In this document: positions 1 through 6,921 of the stretch, piece by piece
Layout: each line of letters begins with the position of its first letter
Position numbering within the stretch: position 1 is the stretch's first letter
NCBI GenBank assembly: GCA_965224235.1
Contig: CBDCYP010000001.1
Location: 768,848 to 832,847, forward strand
Origin: Dehalococcoidia bacterium
GTDB taxonomy: Bacteria; Chloroflexota; Dehalococcoidia; Lucifugimonadales; Lucifugimonadaceae
Direction of reading: 5' to 3'
DNA: 64,000 nt
Notes under the pieces: generated by a model
What the model was told of the DNA's origin: nothing
What the model saw: the letters and a program-made list of their open reading frames with translations, nothing else
The model's database searches: none
Translations under genes and position numbers: made by a program

Positions 1-477
1 GCGGCTTATCGTCTTCAATCTGGCGTCGAGGGCCTGCGGCGGGTCTCTACGCGTAGTTGGGAAGACGACGTGCGCGCCCGTGTCGTACAACTTGGCGTAC
101 GAAGCGAAAACGATCGGCGTCATCTTGACCACCACGGTCGCCCGCTCCGGCTCCAGCAGAGATGTCCCCGACCCGCGCGAGATCATCTGCGTTACCCAAT
201 AATCGCCGTTCGGTTGACGCATCCTGTCGTTGCGGCGCGCCAACTCTTCCGTGATCGACTGCAGTTCATCTATCGACATGCCCGGATCGATCCGCACCAT
301 GTGAAGGGCCTTGTACAGCCGCTCCAGGTGTTCCCTCAGCCGGAACACCTTGCCCGCGAACGTCCGCTCTGTGTCGAAAACCGCATCGCCGACCGAAAGG
401 GCGCGGTCCAACACCGAGATCTTCGCCTCAGAGGTCGGCACAAACTCGCCGTTAACGTATTGGATCAGCTCTTGCAT
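1..477 (-). CDS. class IV (branched-chain / D-amino-acid) PLP aminotransferase, 5' part; 3' end lies outside the window
   Basis: Not in the ORF track because it runs off the window edge. Manual minus-strand translation from the ATG at 477-475 gives MQELIQYVNGEFVPTSEAKISVLDRALSVGDAVFDTERTFAGKVFRLREHLERLYKAL..., a typical fold-type IV aminotransferase N-terminus. The frame is open to position 1. Confidence 0.75.
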   Translation of the reverse strand, partial: MQELIQYVNGEFVPTSEAKISVLDRALSVGDAVFDTERTFAGKVFRLREHLERLYKALHMVRIDPGMSIDELQSITEELARRNDRMRQPNGDYWVTQMISRGSGTSLLEPERATVVVKMTPIVFASYAKLYDTGAHVVFPTTRRDPPQALDARLKTISR

Positions 478-558
478 TGGAATCACCCCGCTGTACCTGT
501 GCGTACGGATTGAGCGGATTTTAGGCCAATCGTCAGCCCGGCGCGCAAGGCTGGCGCC

Positions 559-1746
559 CTATTCCGCCGCATTCTTCAGCGCCCCCGCCAAATTGCCGCG
601 CGGCTCTACTGCCGTATGCCGCAGACCGAGCCACTCCGCCATCGACTCCAATTCCCGCGCCAAGGCCGCCGATACGTCGCCAGCGTCGCGGCCTTTCTCA
701 AGGTACGCGGCCTGAACCAGCAAGACGCCGGCGCCACGGTCTGCCTTCAGATCGACCCGCGCGACGAGTTCACCGGCGTGAAGAAACGGGTAGACGTAGT
801 AGCCGTACCGTCTCTTGGACTTCGGCACGTATATTTCGATGCGATATAAGAATTCGAAGAGCCGCTCTGTCCGGTCCCGAAACCAGACCAGGGAGTCGAA
901 CGGGCTAATGATGGCCGTTGCGCCGGCCCGACGCGGCAGCCGGGCGTCCCTGTGCATGTACGCACGCGGAGGCCAACCCTCGACGCTGGCTTCGTTAAGT
1001 AGGCCCTCTTCGACTATTTCCCGCACCCGGGGCCGTGCTTCGGGAACCTTGATCCGGTAGTAGTCGGCCAGGTCGGCCAGCGTCCCGATCCCGAGGGCCT
1101 CGGCGCCGAGTATGAGCATCTCGCGTTGGGCGTCTTCCCGTGACATTGGGGGCATTTGCAGGAACTTGGTCGGAATCACTCTTTCGGCCAAGTCGTAGAC
1201 CCGGGTGAAGTTCCCGCGTCTGCTCGCCGCGAGTGAGCCGGTGTGAAACAGCCACTCCAGGGCCACCTTGCCCCTGCTCAGCCCCCACCACGGGCCGTTT
1301 CGCTGGCCTGCCTCGTCAAGGTCAGACACGGTCAAAGGGCCGCGTGCGGCCACCTGTTGCCGCACTGACTCGATGTAGTCCCGATGCTCGTCGATCAGGC
1401 ATTGCAACTGCGGCCAGGGCCGCGCAGTATCCATACGGTGCCGAAGCAACGGGTAGTGGACCATCGGCATGAGCGATGCCATGTGGCCCCAGCCCTCGAA
1501 GAGCCTCGATTTGCTATAGGCGAAGTCGTCCAGGCGCTCACGGGGATAGGGTCCGAGCCGCGAGAACGCCGGCATGTAGTGCGTACGCACTGCCACGTTC
1601 ACCGAGTCGAGTTGCAGCAGCTTTACGTGCTTGAGCAGGCGGTCGTAGTGCCGGGCGTCGACACGTCCCGACGGCCGGTTGACGGCGAATCCCTGGGCGG
1701 CGAGGGCAACGCGGCGCGCCTCTGCGCGGGTTAGTGCGATCTTCAT
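559..1746 (-). CDS. ycaQ: winged-helix DNA glycosylase of the YcaQ/AlkZ (DUF1006) family
   Basis: ORF 559..1800. Family-typical N-terminus MKIALTRAEARRVALAAQGF... begins at the internal ATG 1746, so the TTG at 1800 is probably too far upstream. Length and motifs (HYMPAFSRLGPY, FEGWGH, YVPKSKRRYGYYVYPFL) match the family from memory. Confidence 0.75.
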   Translation of the reverse strand: MKIALTRAEARRVALAAQGFAVNRPSGRVDARHYDRLLKHVKLLQLDSVNVAVRTHYMPAFSRLGPYPRERLDDFAYSKSRLFEGWGHMASLMPMVHYPLLRHRMDTARPWPQLQCLIDEHRDYIESVRQQVAARGPLTVSDLDEAGQRNGPWWGLSRGKVALEWLFHTGSLAASRRGNFTRVYDLAERVIPTKFLQMPPMSREDAQREMLILGAEALGIGTLADLADYYRIKVPEARPRVREIVEEGLLNEASVEGWPPRAYMHRDARLPRRAGATAIISPFDSLVWFRDRTERLFEFLYRIEIYVPKSKRRYGYYVYPFLHAGELVARVDLKADRGAGVLLVQAAYLEKGRDAGDVSAALARELESMAEWLGLRHTAVEPRGNLAGALKNAAE

Positions 1747-2037
1747 GAGCAGAAGACGAATGAAGCGCGGCGCGGCGGTCCGGATTTCCGAAGCGGGCAA
1801 CGACCCAACGTCATGGCGAAGCGGCTCATGGCCTCACGATGCCTCCGTCGGCGCGCCGAATCTCGTTCCACGCGCCCCCGAACTCCCATTCGCCATGCGG
1901 AAACTTCGCCGCAAGTTCCTCGTCGATGTCGATGCCCAGGCCAGGCTTGCCGTTTGACCACATGTGACCGTCCCGGACCTCGGGGCAGCCGGGGAATACC
2001 TCTTTCGTGAGCTCGCCGAAAACGGCGTATTCCTGCA
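1685..2037. repeat. direct repeat copy 1 (353 bp; manD 3' end + intergenic + ycaQ 5' end)
   Basis: Aligns base-for-base with 3127-3479 at an offset of 1442, with no indels and 6 substitutions counted by eye. Confidence 0.95.
1826..2037 (-). pseudogene. 3' fragment (last ~70 codons) of a ManD-type enolase-superfamily dehydratase
   Basis: Collinear with the 3' end of CDS 3268..4560 and encodes ...EVFPGCPEVRDGHMWSNGKPGLGIDIDEELAAKFPHGEWEFGGAWNEIRRADGGIVRP*. Homology stops abruptly at 2037 and there is no upstream part of the gene. Confidence 0.85.
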
Positions 2038-2049
2038 GGACCGGACCAA

Positions 2050-2214
2050 GTGTCTAGAGGTCTAGGGACACTCTGAACAAGTGGCCGATGCGCTTGGCAG
2101 AGCGGAGGTTCCCCCCTCCTGAATCCTCCCCCTATGGGGGAGGAGGCCAGAACCCTTCGACAAGCTCAGGGCGAACGGATTGGAACGCGGAGTTGTTCAG
2201 AGGTTCCCTAGACG
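2050..2214. mobile_element. MITE/REP-like element with 23-nt imperfect terminal inverted repeats
   Basis: Left end 2050-2072 is ggtctagggacactctgaacaag. The reverse complement of right end 2192-2214 is cgtctagggaacctctgaacaac, matching 19 of the 23 aligned positions: a 9-nt block (gtctaggga) and a 10-nt block (ctctgaacaa) separated by two mismatches. The interior holds the GC hairpin cctccccc-tat-gggggagg (2125-2143) and the string ttcgacaagctcagggcgaacgg, which resembles dispersed repeats seen in uncultured high-GC genomes. Confidence 0.55.
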
Positions 2215-2571
2215 TTCACATTTTTCGGCAAACTGTATTCGAGTCATCTCATCCTTTTCACCGACGACATCCGAGTGAGCTTCAAAAGACTCGTCCGGCG
2301 TATGCTCAACCGCCTGGTTCAAGCTCCAACAGGTCGCAACTGTGACTCGCACCACGCATCCTGTTTCGGACCACTTTGGGAATTTTGCGAGTACCTGTTT
2401 GGGGGTCGCTAACTGCTCTGCCGCGACAGACATCCGGTTTGTCTTCACAGGGCGCGAATTGTTTTGGAAGGCACCGGGAACGATTGACCCATTCGGTTCG
2501 ATCCATCTCGGATGCACGGCGCGCAATAACCCGTCATCGGCTTGAAAGTCGATCCTCGCAGTCCGTGACAT
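2197..2571 (-). CDS. hypothetical protein (124 aa), downstream gene of the inserted two-gene cassette; no family recognised
   Basis: ORF track 2197..2571 with an ATG start, 19 nt after the stop of the upstream gene. No Tyr residues. The last 5 codons and the stop lie inside the right inverted repeat of the MITE-like element. Confidence 0.6.
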   Translation of the reverse strand: MSRTARIDFQADDGLLRAVHPRWIEPNGSIVPGAFQNNSRPVKTNRMSVAAEQLATPKQVLAKFPKWSETGCVVRVTVATCWSLNQAVEHTPDESFEAHSDVVGEKDEMTRIQFAEKCERLGNL

Positions 2572-2590
2572 TCTTGGGGTGCGTTGACCG

Positions 2591-3022
2591 TTAACTATCG
2601 AATCTTAGTCCGACCAGACGATCAACGACCTCATTCCCGCATCCGGCTGCCCCCTCCTCGGCCTCCAATTCACCGGTCGCAGCTCTCACGGCTCGCACCA
2701 ATCGGATTTCACCGCAAACGTCTACGCGCGCAAGGAGACGATCTGTGCCACGGGTTCCCCAAGACAATTCAATCCCGCCGTCAACCAGCGGCGCCGCGAA
2801 AGGAGACGGGCAGTCGGTGGGAGCAATTACGCTCAGCACTTGGTAAGCCACTGAATAGGCGGAGCGAGATGGAGCAATGGACTCATCGTCATACCAGCCG
2901 TCTTCAAGCTCTCGAAGGGTTGCCAATTGGCAAATATCGTCCGGTCGAGGTGCCGCGGTCCGCGTTCCACCGGGGACAAAAAAGGCCTCGATTCCTGTAA
3001 CCTCCTCGCGTTCAATAGTCAT
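2591..3022 (-). CDS. hypothetical protein (143 aa), upstream gene of the inserted two-gene cassette; no family recognised
   Basis: ORF 2591..3151 trimmed to ATG 3022, which has a GGAGGG Shine-Dalgarno 7 nt upstream (ccctcc at 3030-3035 on the plus strand). Notable motifs are LATLRELEDGWYDDESIAP and DGGIELSW. Codons are visibly more A/T-ending than in neighbouring genes. Confidence 0.65.
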   Translation of the reverse strand: MTIEREEVTGIEAFFVPGGTRTAAPRPDDICQLATLRELEDGWYDDESIAPSRSAYSVAYQVLSVIAPTDCPSPFAAPLVDGGIELSWGTRGTDRLLARVDVCGEIRLVRAVRAATGELEAEEGAAGCGNEVVDRLVGLRFDS

Positions 3023-3096
3023 CACAATTCCCTCCAATAAGGAGAATGTTTGGGCGATTCCAAACCCGACGCAGTCGCGGCACTGATCGGAACGCG

Positions 3097-3188
3097 AGCT
3101 TAACACGCCCCGACAACCGCTTCCCTGCGAATCCCTGGGCGGCGAGGGCAACGCGGCGCGCCTCTGCGCGGGTTAGTGCGATCTTCAT
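3097..3188 (-). pseudogene. 5' remnant of a ycaQ allele (about 30 codons)
   Basis: MKIALTRAEARRVALAAQGFA is identical to ycaQ codons 1-21. The next part, GKRLSGRVK, is still recognisably related to ycaQ VNRPSGRVD, and after that the sequence is unrelated. It forms part of the chimeric 76-aa ORF 3012..3242. Confidence 0.8.
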
Positions 3189-3479
3189 GAGCAGAAGACG
3201 AGTGAAGCGCGGCGCGGCGGTCCGGATTTCCGAAGCGGGCAACGACGCAACGTCATGGCGAAGCGGCTCATGGCCTCACGATGCCTCCGTCGGCGCGTCG
3301 GATCTCGTTCCACGCGCCCCCGAACTCCCATTCGCTATGCGGAAACTTCGCCGCAAGTTCCTCGTCGATGTCGATGCCCAGGCCAGGCTTGCCGTTTGAC
3401 CACATGTGACCGTCCCGGACCTCGGGGCAGCCGGGGAAGACCTCTTTCGTGAGCTCGCCGAAAACGGCGTATTCCTGCA
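3127..3479. repeat. direct repeat copy 2 (353 bp)
   Basis: See copy 1. This copy is contiguous with the complete dehydratase gene 3268..4560. Confidence 0.95.
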
Positions 3480-4560
3480 CTCCGAAGTTCCAGCAGTTCA
3501 GGTCCATCATCAGGTTTGCGGCGTGGCCGACTGGAGACGTATCCCCCGGCCCATGCCACGCCGTTCGCACCCCGAACATCTCCGCCATCGCGGCCAACTT
3601 GCGGCACGGCGTGATCCCGCCCATCTGCGAAACGTGGATTCGTATGAAGTCGATCAGCCGGTCCTTGACCATGGGAATCACCTCGTGCGGGTTGTTCCAC
3701 AGTTCGCCCATCGCCAACGGCGTTGCGCATAACTGACGGACCAGCCGGAAGTAGTCTTGGTCCTCCGGCGAAAACAGGTCTTCGAGGAAGAACAGGCGGT
3801 ACTGCTCGACCTCTTTGGCGAACCAAACGCCGCCGATCGCCGGGATGCGCTCGTGGACATCGTGGAGCATCTCGAAATCCCAGCCGCACTGTGAACGAAC
3901 GCGGTCGAACAGCCCCAGGGCGCTGTTCATGTACGGCTTCGGCTCAAATATGCCGGGCGGGTGCGCGTATTTCTTGTCGGGCGACAGTTCCTTTGTCCAG
4001 GTGGCAACGGGGCGAGGACCGCCGCCGGTCCCCGGGGCAGTTTCGGTTGATGGAAGCAAGCCTTTTGTGCCGTACGTCGCGTAGCCGGGCGTGTCGACCT
4101 GAACGCGGACGTGGTGGAATCCCTGATCCAGGAAGGAGCTCACTTTGTCCGCTACCTCTACCGACTCTCTTCCGCTTGCGTGGACATAGACTGCGGCGGC
4201 CTCACGCGCCCTCCCTCCCAGGAGGTCATACACCGGCATGCCGGCCATCTTGCCCTTGATGTCCCACAGAGCCTGATCGACTCCGCTCAGCGCATTGTTG
4301 AGAATGCCGCCGTTGCGCCAATACGAACTGACGTAACTCGATTGCCAGATGTCCTCGATGTCGCTCACGTTCCGACCGATCAGAAACGGGCGCAGATAAT
4401 TCTCCACCGCGACCTTCACCGGCAGCGGCCGCTGGGTGAACGTGGCGCAGCCGACCCCGTAAAGGCCCGGTTCGCTTGTTTCCACCTTGACGATCACGAG
4501 GCGGATGCCGTCCGGTTCGGTCAGGATGACTCTTATGTCTCTGATCGTGACGTTATTCAT
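3268..4560 (-). CDS. enolase-superfamily dehydratase, D-mannonate/D-galactonate dehydratase (ManD/RspA-like) subgroup
   Basis: 430-aa ORF with N-terminus IRDIRVILTEPDGIRLVIVKVETSEPGLYGVGCATF...VDQALWDIKGKMAGMPVYDLLGG, typical of the mandelate racemase / muconate lactonizing family. GAGGAG Shine-Dalgarno before the ATG. Confidence 0.8.
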   Translation of the reverse strand: MNNVTIRDIRVILTEPDGIRLVIVKVETSEPGLYGVGCATFTQRPLPVKVAVENYLRPFLIGRNVSDIEDIWQSSYVSSYWRNGGILNNALSGVDQALWDIKGKMAGMPVYDLLGGRAREAAAVYVHASGRESVEVADKVSSFLDQGFHHVRVQVDTPGYATYGTKGLLPSTETAPGTGGGPRPVATWTKELSPDKKYAHPPGIFEPKPYMNSALGLFDRVRSQCGWDFEMLHDVHERIPAIGGVWFAKEVEQYRLFFLEDLFSPEDQDYFRLVRQLCATPLAMGELWNNPHEVIPMVKDRLIDFIRIHVSQMGGITPCRKLAAMAEMFGVRTAWHGPGDTSPVGHAANLMMDLNCWNFGVQEYAVFGELTKEVFPGCPEVRDGHMWSNGKPGLGIDIDEELAAKFPHSEWEFGGAWNEIRRADGGIVRP

Positions 4561-4619
4561 GTGAATCTCCTCGTCCGGGTATGTGTCGCCGGTCGTCGTC
4601 GATGCTGCCGCTCAGGGAC

Positions 4620-5867
4620 TCAAGGCCGGACAATCGCGCCGTCGGCGCTGCGAACGAGTTCCCTGAACATGTCCCGCTCCGGTATCGGATAACTCGCTGC
4701 CAACTTCTCGTCGATATCGACGCCAAGTCCGGGCTTGCCGTTAGGCCACATATGACCCTCCCGTACTTCGGGGCAGCCGGGGAATACCTCGCGGGTCCGT
4801 TCGGGAAACACCGCCCACTCGTGGACGCCGAAGTTCCACGTGTTCAACTCCAGCATCAGGTTGGCTGCGTGCCCGACGGGGGAAGTGCCTCCCGGCCCGT
4901 GCCACACGGTGCGAACGCCGAACATCTCGCTTAACGCAGCGTACTTGCGGCACGGTGTAAAGCCTCCCACCCGCGAGACGTGAATCCGGATGAAATCGAT
5001 CAGGCGCTCTTTGACCATCGGGATGATCTCGTGCGGGTTCGACCAAAGCTCCCCCATGGCGATGGGAGTCGTACAGATCTGGCGCACATGCCGGAAGTAG
5101 TCCTGATCCTCGGGGGTGAACAGGTCTTCCAGGAAGAAGAGGCGGTACTGCTCCACCTCTTTGGCGAGCCACACTCCGTCGATCGCCGGGATGCGTTCGT
5201 GGACGTCGTGCAGCATCTCGAAATCCCAACCGACCTTGCTGCGGAGGTGATCGAACAGGCCGAGGGCAGACTTAATATAGGGCTTCGGCCCGAAGATTCC
5301 GCCGGACCATGACGTCACGGCCCGCGGCCCGCCCATCGTTCCGGTACGCCCGTCCACGTCGAGGCCGCTGCGCGCGCCATAGGTATGGTATCCCGGCGTT
5401 TCGACCTGAACCCTCAGGTAGTGGAAACCCTGCTCAATATAGGCGCGCACCTGATCCTCGACAGCTTCGTTGTCTCGCCCGCTGGGGTGCACGTAGACTG
5501 CGGCCGCTTCTCTGGCGCGGCCGCCCAGCAGATCGTACACAGGCATGTTCCCCATCTTGCCCTTGATGTCCCACAGGGCCTGATCGACCCCGCTGAGAGC
5601 GTCTCCCAGAATCGTGCCGTTGCGCCAGTACGAACTGACGTTGGCAGACTGCCATATGTCTTCTATATCGAAGACGCTGCGGCCAATGAGAAACGGACGC
5701 AGATAGTCGTCCACCGCGGACTTGACCGTGAACGGTTGCCGGTCGTACGTCGCGCAGCCGAGGCCGTACAGACCCGGCTCGGTAGTTTCGACCTTGACGA
5801 CGGCGAGGGCGTTGTTGTCCGGCTGAGTAAGTATCGTCCGGATGTCGCGGATTTTTGGGTCGCTCAA
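4620..5867 (-). CDS. enolase-superfamily dehydratase (ManD/RspA-like), tandem paralog
   Basis: 415-aa ORF, collinear and highly similar to 3268..4560. TTG start preceded by GGAGGA. Confidence 0.8.
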   Translation of the reverse strand: MSDPKIRDIRTILTQPDNNALAVVKVETTEPGLYGLGCATYDRQPFTVKSAVDDYLRPFLIGRSVFDIEDIWQSANVSSYWRNGTILGDALSGVDQALWDIKGKMGNMPVYDLLGGRAREAAAVYVHPSGRDNEAVEDQVRAYIEQGFHYLRVQVETPGYHTYGARSGLDVDGRTGTMGGPRAVTSWSGGIFGPKPYIKSALGLFDHLRSKVGWDFEMLHDVHERIPAIDGVWLAKEVEQYRLFFLEDLFTPEDQDYFRHVRQICTTPIAMGELWSNPHEIIPMVKERLIDFIRIHVSRVGGFTPCRKYAALSEMFGVRTVWHGPGGTSPVGHAANLMLELNTWNFGVHEWAVFPERTREVFPGCPEVREGHMWPNGKPGLGVDIDEKLAASYPIPERDMFRELVRSADGAIVRP

Positions 5868-6250: not shown

Positions 6251-6921
6251 TGGGTGTCATCGTCCAGCCCGCGCCGATCCATGGCATCTGTGATGGCAGC
6301 CGCCGCAAGACGCGGGTCTTTGGTTGCAAGTATCGCGCTAATGCAGGCCACACCCACCGCGCCCGCGCGCATCACCCAAGCCGCGTTCGACGCATCGATG
6401 CCGCCTATGCCAATGACGGGCAGGTCCACCACCGCGACGATGTTCCGGATGATGCCGGTCCCGCTTGCCTCTCCGCCGGGGTGGGACGAAGAGGGGTACA
6501 CGGTGCCCGCCATCAGATAGTCTGCACCTTCCGCCGCGGCCGACTCCGCCGCGGCAGCGCTGTGCACCGATCGGCCTGTGAGAAGTCCGGTCCCCGCGAT
6601 TCGCCGTGCCCGCGAGACAGGCATCGCCGACTCGGGGAGGTGTACCCCGTCGGCGCCGGTCTGCGCCGCCGACTCGGGGTCTCCGTTCACAACGAAAATC
6701 GCCCGGCCCCTCGTGACATCCCGAACAGCCATTGCCAGGTCAACTCTCGCGCAGCCGATCGACACATGGTCGCGCAACTGGACCATGTTGACGCCGCCTT
6801 CTATTGCCGCGTCGATGACGCTAGCCAATTGCGCCGGCGCGATGTGCGGACCCGGCCCGGCGACAAGGCACAGGACACGGTCCGGAACCAACGCGGGCGA
6901 CACTTGCCCAATCCGGCCCAT
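6247..6921 (-). CDS. thiE: thiamine-phosphate synthase
   Basis: 224 aa with VQLRDH, GADGVHL, GADYLMAGTVYPS and PVIGIGGI motifs. Confidence 0.85.
   Translation of the reverse strand: MGRIGQVSPALVPDRVLCLVAGPGPHIAPAQLASVIDAAIEGGVNMVQLRDHVSIGCARVDLAMAVRDVTRGRAIFVVNGDPESAAQTGADGVHLPESAMPVSRARRIAGTGLLTGRSVHSAAAAESAAAEGADYLMAGTVYPSSSHPGGEASGTGIIRNIVAVVDLPVIGIGGIDASNAAWVMRAGAVGVACISAILATKDPRLAAAAITDAMDRRGLDDDTQ

Follow-up and report, generated by a model that had tools for sequence, protein, structure and literature searches.

A probably ancient 377-bp junction duplication around a decaying candidate-defence cassette in Dehalococcoidia

Introduction

How does an insert come to lie between two nearly identical copies of the very gene junction that it interrupts, and does the near-identity of the copies mean that the insert arrived recently? 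The question is raised by a 64,000-nucleotide stretch of DNA from a Dehalococcoidia bacterium (GenBank assembly GCA_965224235.1, contig CBDCYP010000001.1, positions 768,848 to 832,847), called the window below, in which two copies of the junction between ycaQ and manD1 flank a short cassette of accessory genes. An earlier note, made from the sequence of this stretch, read the arrangement as the product of a single Campbell-type crossover that had joined functional alleles from two lineages. Comparison with related loci leads us to a different history, which we regard as probable: an old duplication of 377 bp, of single origin, surrounds a decaying candidate-defence cassette, has been homogenized in this genome, and segregates in a recombining population.

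Accessory and defence genes of uncultured, streamlined bacteria often stand without visible mobility machinery, and the routes by which they enter and leave genomes are poorly documented. The locus described here offers a natural series that runs from the empty site, through many strains with the complete cassette, to a copy in decay.

Results

A duplicated gene junction brackets the insert

All coordinates are positions in the 64-kb window. R is the repeated unit, Ry its ycaQ-linked copy, Rm its manD1-linked copy, and U the insert between them. Base-by-base comparison of 1685-2037 with 3127-3479 confirms the match described in the earlier note, 353 bp at an offset of 1442 with six substitutions (1760/3202, 1805/3247, 1856/3298, 1859/3301, 1894/3336 and 1997/3439) and no indels. 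A repeat search of the window recovers the same pair; the only other long direct repeats in the 64 kb lie between tandem manD paralogues. Each 353-bp copy consists, as the note had it, of the last 70 codons and stop codon of a ManD-like gene, a 79-bp intergenic region, and the first 21 or so codons of ycaQ, and the coding differences are the four it listed (Val gta/gtc, Ile att/atc, Arg cgg/cga, and Ser/Gly). Its outer bounds need correction. Homology continues for 24 bp past the core, with seven mismatches between 1661-1684 and 3103-3126, and alignment with related loci gives a true duplicated unit of 377 bp, 1661-2037 and 3103-3479. The insert is therefore 2038-3102 (1065 bp), not 2038-3126. 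Its G+C content is 54-59%, against 61-67% for the flanks. The features at the junction are as follows.

559 to 1746, minus strand: ycaQ, complete gene for an AlkZ/YcaQ-like DNA glycosylase (Pfam PF06224, E = 5.9e-63).
1661 to 2037, minus strand: Ry, with its junction at 2037/2038 the same in all 12 filled relatives; composed of ycaQ codons 1-29 (1661-1746), the 79-bp intergenic region (1747-1825), and a non-functional 3' fragment of manD1 with its stop codon (1826-2037).
2038 to 3102, minus strand: U, accessory insert, a degraded copy of a cassette of about 1.92 kb with three genes, geneA, geneB and geneC; absent in the empty relatives L001-L007 and orthologous to U of L081 and L085-L096.
3103 to 3479, minus strand: Rm, composed of a 24-bp tip (3103-3126), a 5' fragment of ycaQ, codons 1-21 (3127-3188), the intergenic region (3189-3267), and the functional 3' end of manD1 (3268-3479).
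3268 to 4560, minus strand: manD1, complete gene for a ManD-like dehydratase of the enolase superfamily (Pfam MR_MLE_N/C).
4620 to 5867, minus strand: manD2, tandem paralogue of manD1 and origin of the weaker 72-76% repeats.

The best NCBIfam match of manD1 is the ManD model NF043051, at E = 7e-116 and under the curated cut-off. The two tandem ManD-like paralogues (3268-5867, 72-76% nucleotide identity) are kept in all relatives and explain repeat families D1 and D3.

Related genomes carry both empty and filled sites

Species-representative genomes scanned with YcaQ yielded seven Dehalococcoidia metagenome-assembled genomes (MAGs), L001-L007, whose YcaQ proteins are 78-93% identical in amino acid sequence. 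All seven have manD2, manD1 and ycaQ side by side; R occurs once, and nothing of an insert is present. This is the empty site that the earlier note had proposed to look for by comparing the ycaQ-manD junction among relatives, and its presence in seven related genomes upholds the view that the insert is accessory DNA.

Filled sites were found through the cassette itself. A search with the 124-aa ORF of the insert led to a protein 88% identical to it (P0001), whose contig, L081, has two copies of R around a longer insert. Eleven further contigs (L085-L093, L096) were reached through identical cassette proteins. The repeat-insert-repeat arrangement (R-U-R) thus occurs in 12 contigs from five ENA metagenome assemblies, with coverage up to 22x and lengths up to 804 kb, and one of them is a SPAdes contig. 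Gene order in the filled relatives is manD1, geneA (219 aa), geneB (218/219 aa), geneC (123 aa), ycaQ. The duplicated unit measures 377 bp in all filled loci, and two junctions are common to every one of them: on the manD1 side ...GGGCGTGT is followed directly by TAAGCTCGCGTTCCGATCAG, and on the ycaQ side ...GGTCC is followed by TGCA(G/A)GA.... Exact-protein look-ups with the geneC and manD1 products of the window gave no match, and a scan of JGI metagenomes with geneC returned no relatives, so no more filled loci were gained from the window's own clade (alpha, defined below).

Identical junctions in every filled locus, in sequences 12-17% diverged, argue for a single founding event of the R-U-R structure and effectively exclude an assembly chimera. 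Such an artefact would have chained strain variants of the junction through an unrelated insert, with one R per molecule. It might be suspected in a metagenome-derived contig from a strain-rich population, and short-read contigs of the cassette family do break near the repeats. We nevertheless find it hardly credible. Independent assemblies reproduce the layout that the earlier note had described, with the same architecture and junctions in long-read-style contigs of 6-22x as well as in the SPAdes contig, and the window differs from the other filled contigs by about 12-17% throughout and so cannot have been pieced together from them. That the two copies were resolved separately is evident from their six differences and from the diverged tip, and an ORF of the window is on record from a 1.14-Mb contig.

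The arrangement is as old as the split of two haplotype clades

The window and the empty L001, at 94-97% nucleotide identity, form one haplotype clade, alpha; all other filled contigs and the empty L002 form a second, beta, and the two are about 88% identical. Between the window and L086, synonymous divergence (dS) is 0.36 in geneC and 0.51 in the C-terminal part of geneB, compared with 0.45 in manD1, 0.51 in manD2 and 0.33 in ycaQ. Because the dS of the cassette (0.36-0.51) equals that of the flanks (0.33-0.51), the cassette has diverged together with its flanks and did not arrive recently in this genome. The ratio of nonsynonymous to synonymous divergence (dN/dS) of the cassette genes in the same comparison is 0.19-0.24, with geneC at 0.19. 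The same two junctions are present in a clade about 12% diverged from the window, and L002, with its empty site, is nested among filled beta strains. The structure is shown to be as old as the split of the two local haplotype clades, and in this recombining population of Dehalococcoidia it is still polymorphic for presence and absence. The earlier note had conceded that its reading would fail if relatives carried the same R-U-R as an ancient, fixed arrangement of core genes; we find the arrangement ancient and widespread, but polymorphic rather than fixed or core.

The beta genomes also show what such repeats look like with age. Their two R copies are only 85.7-96.0% identical, and every beta Ry has a 3-bp deletion and substitutions within the first 20 bp or so, near the junction. 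These are fossil marks of a dead manD1 fragment. The Ry of the window is without them all the way to the junction.

Gene conversion best accounts for the near-identity of the window's copies

To polarize the six differences we used 22 R sequences from relatives. Of the six, three (1997, 1859 and 1805) are private to Ry, one (3202) is private to Rm, and 1894/3336 and 1856/3298 fall at sites polymorphic in relatives. Four bases, at R positions 28, 95, 251 and 284, are common to both window copies and occur in no other sequence. The tip of Rm (3103-3126) reads FAGKR, like the beta clade and the outgroups, while the functional ycaQ of the window reads FAVNR, the alpha type.

Since the arrangement is old and both copies share four lineage-specific bases, gene conversion between repeats of long standing seems to explain their near-identity better than does a recent crossover with a foreign allele. 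By non-reciprocal homogenization in the window lineage, the functional end of manD1 would have overwritten its fossil, and the functional start of ycaQ would have overwritten its own. A conversion tract of 353 bp, halted 24 bp before the cassette, would have left the tip in its ancestral form, and a few new mutations would have followed in both copies.

The history proposed in the earlier note deserves a direct comparison. It has a circle, carrying the insert and a foreign R allele, integrating recently at an empty manD1-ycaQ junction by one Campbell-type crossover, with the six substitutions as differences between host and donor. R is single and contiguous in L001-L007 and doubled around U in the window and the 12 contigs, as this requires, and the topology, the lower G+C content of U and the fact that empty sites exist all fit. 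Three of the four coding differences are synonymous, and very low cassette diversity among diverged beta strains (described below) indicates that recombination near R does move the cassette or let it sweep. The window's cassette, however, is as diverged from other copies as its flanks are, and carries a private deletion and a private miniature inverted-repeat transposable element (MITE). A circle excised from an old filled site carries fossil halves of R, so a fresh event of this kind cannot yield the window's copies, given that its Ry is free of the beta marks. Nor are the copies reciprocal hybrids of host and donor with one crossover point: the shared private bases, and singletons scattered over either copy, do not bear out the claim of two functional alleles from different lineages. 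The synonymous excess, offered in the note as the signature of such alleles, is weak and not significant, with P = 0.04-0.10 by chance. We therefore judge a recent crossover joining alleles of two lineages very unlikely; what survives of the proposal is that the insert may plausibly have entered, and may leave, by recombination through R. A double crossover with a beta donor was also considered as the source of the near-identical copies and rejected, as the right-hand crossover would need to sit within about 5 bp of the junction. When the Campbell prediction of reciprocal hybrids is applied to the beta strains, the uniform tract linked to the cassette extends about 90 bp into Rm and 20-40 bp into Ry, lengths that are non-complementary, although heavy mosaicism makes this comparison less than clear-cut.

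The cassette and its flanks recombine in the population

Identity between the clades is 88% in manD1 and ycaQ and rises to 95-97% just past ycaQ, in the class-IV aminotransferase gene at window positions 1-480. This jump means that recombination is frequent, with a boundary within about 1 kb of the repeat. Diversity inside the beta clade changes just as sharply. Nine beta contigs, drawn from three assemblies, are 99.6-100% identical over the 1.9-kb cassette (diversity about 0.002), while diversity in manD1, both R copies and ycaQ is 0.03-0.11, and the change falls within about 100 bp of each junction. Two scenarios would produce this pattern: a sweep of a single cassette allele through diverged backgrounds, or flanks that are diversified again and again by exchange with cassette-less genomes, which have no access to U. 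Both place recombination breakpoints inside R. Recombination between the two repeats would delete the cassette precisely and restore an intact junction, and the repeats with their flanks would let the cassette pass between strains by homologous recombination of the host.

A second beta cassette allele, in L081 and L085, is 89% identical in geneA, 74% in the N-terminal part of geneB, and 98% in the C-terminal part of geneB and in geneC. The 74% nucleotide identity is that of the N-terminal half of geneB (about 853-1110 of the cassette) between L086-L096 and L081/L085, and this half looks like a hypervariable or exchanged specificity region. In Rm of L081 (about 1530-1680), a patch of some 150 bp covering the intergenic region and the ycaQ 5' fragment is of alpha type, close to L001 and the window, in an otherwise beta genome.

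The window holds a decaying copy of the cassette

In full form the cassette consists of three genes that run in the same direction, preceded by an 80-bp leader and followed by a tail of about 20 bp. The copy in the window contains the following features.

3023 to 3102, minus strand: leader upstream of geneA, 80 bp, beginning at the Rm/U junction, which reads GT/TAAGCTCGCGTTCCGATCAG on the minus strand.
2591 to 3022, minus strand: fusion ORF, 143 aa, joining geneA codons 1-9 in frame to the conserved C-terminal part of geneB, about 134 aa.
2197 to 2571, minus strand: geneC, 124 aa, intact, 88% identical to P0001.
2066 to 2207, no strand assigned: MITE, 142 bp, in the 3' end of geneC, with its CTAG target duplication at 2062-2065 and 2208-2211.

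About 0.98 kb is missing relative to the full cassette, with the deletion junction at 2996/2997. The 143-aa product is identical to a protein on record (P0005) from an NCBI/ENA contig of 1,143,247 bp. With geneA lost, geneB cut to its conserved domain and a MITE in the end of geneC, the window's cassette appears to be decaying. Its fusion ORF is intact and still matches the PADLOC model PDC-M32A, so a minimal two-gene module of the fusion and geneC may remain functional.

The MITE has 15-bp terminal inverted repeats, GGACACTCTGAACAA / GGAACCTCTGAACAA (GGAMCMTCTGAACAA), beginning GGAAC..., and its insertion changed the C-terminus encoded by geneC from ERLDL to ERLGNL. The orthologous site is uninterrupted, with one CTAG, in all beta-clade cassettes, and elements of 130-150 bp with the same ends and different cores occur in five unrelated JGI metagenome contigs (L099-L103). 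Inverted repeats, a target duplication, no coding capacity, an empty orthologous site, and same-ended copies elsewhere together mark the element as a MITE. Readings of the inverted repeat at 2060-2213 as an attC-like integron site or a terminator were dropped, since the uninterrupted orthologous site shows it to be a MITE.

The products of geneB and geneC weakly match the models of the two PDC-M32 proteins. GeneB has a variable N-terminus and a conserved C-terminal domain of about 130 aa, over which PDC-M32A matches the fusion at E = 1.1e-10 (1e-10 to 1.5e-9 across geneB and the fusion), a match that spans just 65-75 or so of 375 model positions. PDC-M32B matches geneC at E = 2.6e-7 over about 90 of 123 model positions. 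The cassette is a candidate defence or toxin-antitoxin-like module, and PDC-M32 is itself a candidate phage-defence system. PADLOC reported PDC-M32 in Sinorhizobium prophages (PMC12429752).

The geneC family is small, with about 96 clusters at 50% identity. An AlphaFold2 model of a geneC orthologue has a mean predicted local distance difference test score (pLDDT) of 95, and its top Foldseek matches are Tpt1/KptA, AvrPphF ORF2 and a Xre-RES toxin (E = 0.06-2, TM-score 0.4-0.55). From this model, geneC may weakly resemble enzymes of the ADP-ribosyltransferase fold such as Tpt1/KptA and the RES toxin. Its conserved residues include S48, Q86, H99 and G104. For geneA, Pfam, NCBIfam and PHROGs detect no family, and its structure prediction (pLDDT 49.6) is unusable; the same three collections give nothing useful for any of the three cassette proteins. 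Rfam has no match in the region, nor in L104 (described below) or L086. No relatives of geneC were found in PLSDB plasmids, INPHARED phages or IMG/VR, which leaves a phage or plasmid vehicle unsupported.

A few kilobases from the locus, in the beta-clade contigs L081 (6531-8669), L092 (9990-11498) and L093 (6538-8700), lie genes for large proteins with leucine-rich repeat, fibronectin-III or cadherin domains. They belong to the eukaryote-like repeat proteins that are often reported in host-associated symbionts, for example those of sponges. The empty-site genome L001 is titled a Langseth MAG.

A homologous cassette at a second site is also flanked by a long duplication

A protein 55% identical to geneC (P0010) is encoded on contig L104, from a different genome, in a homologous geneA-geneB-geneC module at an unrelated site downstream of selB. 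This module is flanked by a target duplication of 343 bp, 3555-3897 against 6476-6818, in which near-identity holds over the first 249 bp and gives way to 81% in the last 94 bp. The repeat covers an intergenic region and the first 98 or so codons of a 164-aa downstream gene, and the G+C content of the insert is again lower. R-U-R with similar repeat lengths is therefore seen in both long contigs available for independent insertions. Other homologues of the cassette (L082-L084, L105-L109) are on short-read contigs of 0.5-3 kb that end near the cassette and are too short for the repeats to be judged. Among these, L105 runs from within the left L104 repeat to a point 34 bp into the right one, which is what one would see if short-read assemblies break at the flanking repeats.

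With 343 bp duplicated at L104 and 377 bp in the window, a long target duplication may be a recurrent property of how the cassette inserts. One explanation is that the family has its own insertion mechanism, encoded by the cassette or supplied by a dedicated vehicle, which makes a giant target-site duplication of about 350 bp. Two independent sites, at manD1/ycaQ and downstream of selB, with like repeat lengths speak for it, and at both the insert is lower in G+C content and the upstream copy holds a truncated 5' fragment of the downstream gene; geneA, which belongs to no detectable family, fits as well. Set against this, just two loci are informative, and the cassette ends show neither conserved termini nor inverted repeats, and no recombinase or nuclease is recognizable. 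L104 has some 720 bp extra between its repeat and geneA, which means that the inserted unit varies, and the unusable model of geneA is of no help. We think a dedicated mechanism rather improbable.

At the manD1-ycaQ junction, the founding event could have been Campbell-type entry of a circle with a captured junction, or a replicative template switch. For the two sites together there are three candidate routes: homologous recombination with a circle that had captured target DNA, a template switch during replication, or a dedicated mechanism. Two cases do not discriminate among them. A more speculative idea, in our view unlikely, is that the cassette is a mobile unit without a recombinase that inserts with a target duplication of about 350 bp, after which the arms act as built-in homology through which RecA could excise the cassette precisely, close it into a circle, and return it to empty sites. 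If true, this would be a homology-addressed mobility of a candidate defence module, and could explain a near-invariant cassette allele despite flank differences of 3-11%.

Discussion

An old 377-bp duplication, homogenized by gene conversion in the window and segregating in the population, fits the observations best. Several points nonetheless weigh against it. The population is highly recombinogenic, so vertical co-divergence of cassette and flanks holds for haplotypes and not for genomes. The alpha patch in L081 calls for recombination between clades or, alternatively, a consensus problem in a contig of 1.98x coverage. We infer gene conversion from sequence patterns, and its timing rests on one lineage, because the window is the sole filled alpha genome at hand. 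Finally, the 343-bp duplication at L104 hints at a dedicated insertion mechanism, which an old duplication with later conversion does not supply.

Near-identical repeats within a genome can be old and homogenized, and their low divergence is no evidence of recency. The long junction duplication shields the genes on either side and offers substrates on which precise loss, gene conversion and exchange can act. What most deserves attention is its recurrence at L104: if duplication of about 350 bp holds for the cassette family, it would point to an undescribed insertion route. A literature search for a described equivalent of a cassette flanked by a junction duplication returned nothing specific.

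The locus can be placed among known systems. It does not belong with transposons or insertion sequences (IS) that generate target-site duplications. Inspection of the cassette ends and searches of Pfam, NCBIfam and PHROG found no transposase, integrase or terminal inverted repeats; the ends are not conserved between independent copies, and the duplication is 377 bp instead of 2-15 bp, too long for a transposase, as the earlier note had said. A site-specific integrative element fits no better, with no integrase in or next to the element and no recombinase domain in the three cassette genes or their neighbours.

Campbell-type integration products, such as those of suicide plasmids and lambda-dgal-type heterogenotes, have features in common with the locus. 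Direct repeats of one contiguous segment bracket the insert, the empty site has the segment once, and recombination between the repeats would excise the insert precisely. The window locus differs in showing no circular form, replicon or vector backbone, in repeats that are not a simple hybrid pair, and in an arrangement that is ancient and homogenized.

Copies of tuf and of rrn undergo concerted evolution by intrachromosomal gene conversion, and the locus shares features with them: two old direct repeats stay nearly the same in one genome although their orthologues in sister genomes have diverged, and the window's repeats show a sharp border to an unconverted segment. The locus differs in that one half of each converted unit is functional and the other a fossil, and in the accessory cassette that lies between the units.

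The 142-bp element resembles IS5-derived MITEs in its 15-bp GGAAC... inverted repeats, its CTAG duplication, its empty orthologous site and the same-ended elements elsewhere. Ends of the IS5 group resemble GGAAGGTGCGAACAAG and come with a 4-bp YTAR target duplication; from the likeness of the ends the element may be of IS5-family origin, with no parent IS found. Of the candidate system PDC-M32 (A about 375 aa, B about 123-131 aa), the cassette has adjacent genes that match the A and B models in the right order; it differs in its additional upstream geneA and in matching the A model over a small part.

The last comparison is with the minimal mobile elements (MMEs) of Neisseria, flexible genomic islands, and other islets between conserved genes that are exchanged by homologous recombination. 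Like them, the cassette has no mobility genes, is found in some strains and missing from others, always with one pair of core genes as its neighbours, and has a diversity pattern that indicates homologous exchange in its flanks. To our knowledge, MMEs have not been described as flanked by a long junction duplication. The cassette differs from them in carrying a 377-bp duplicated arm, a feature that recurs at another site, in L104.

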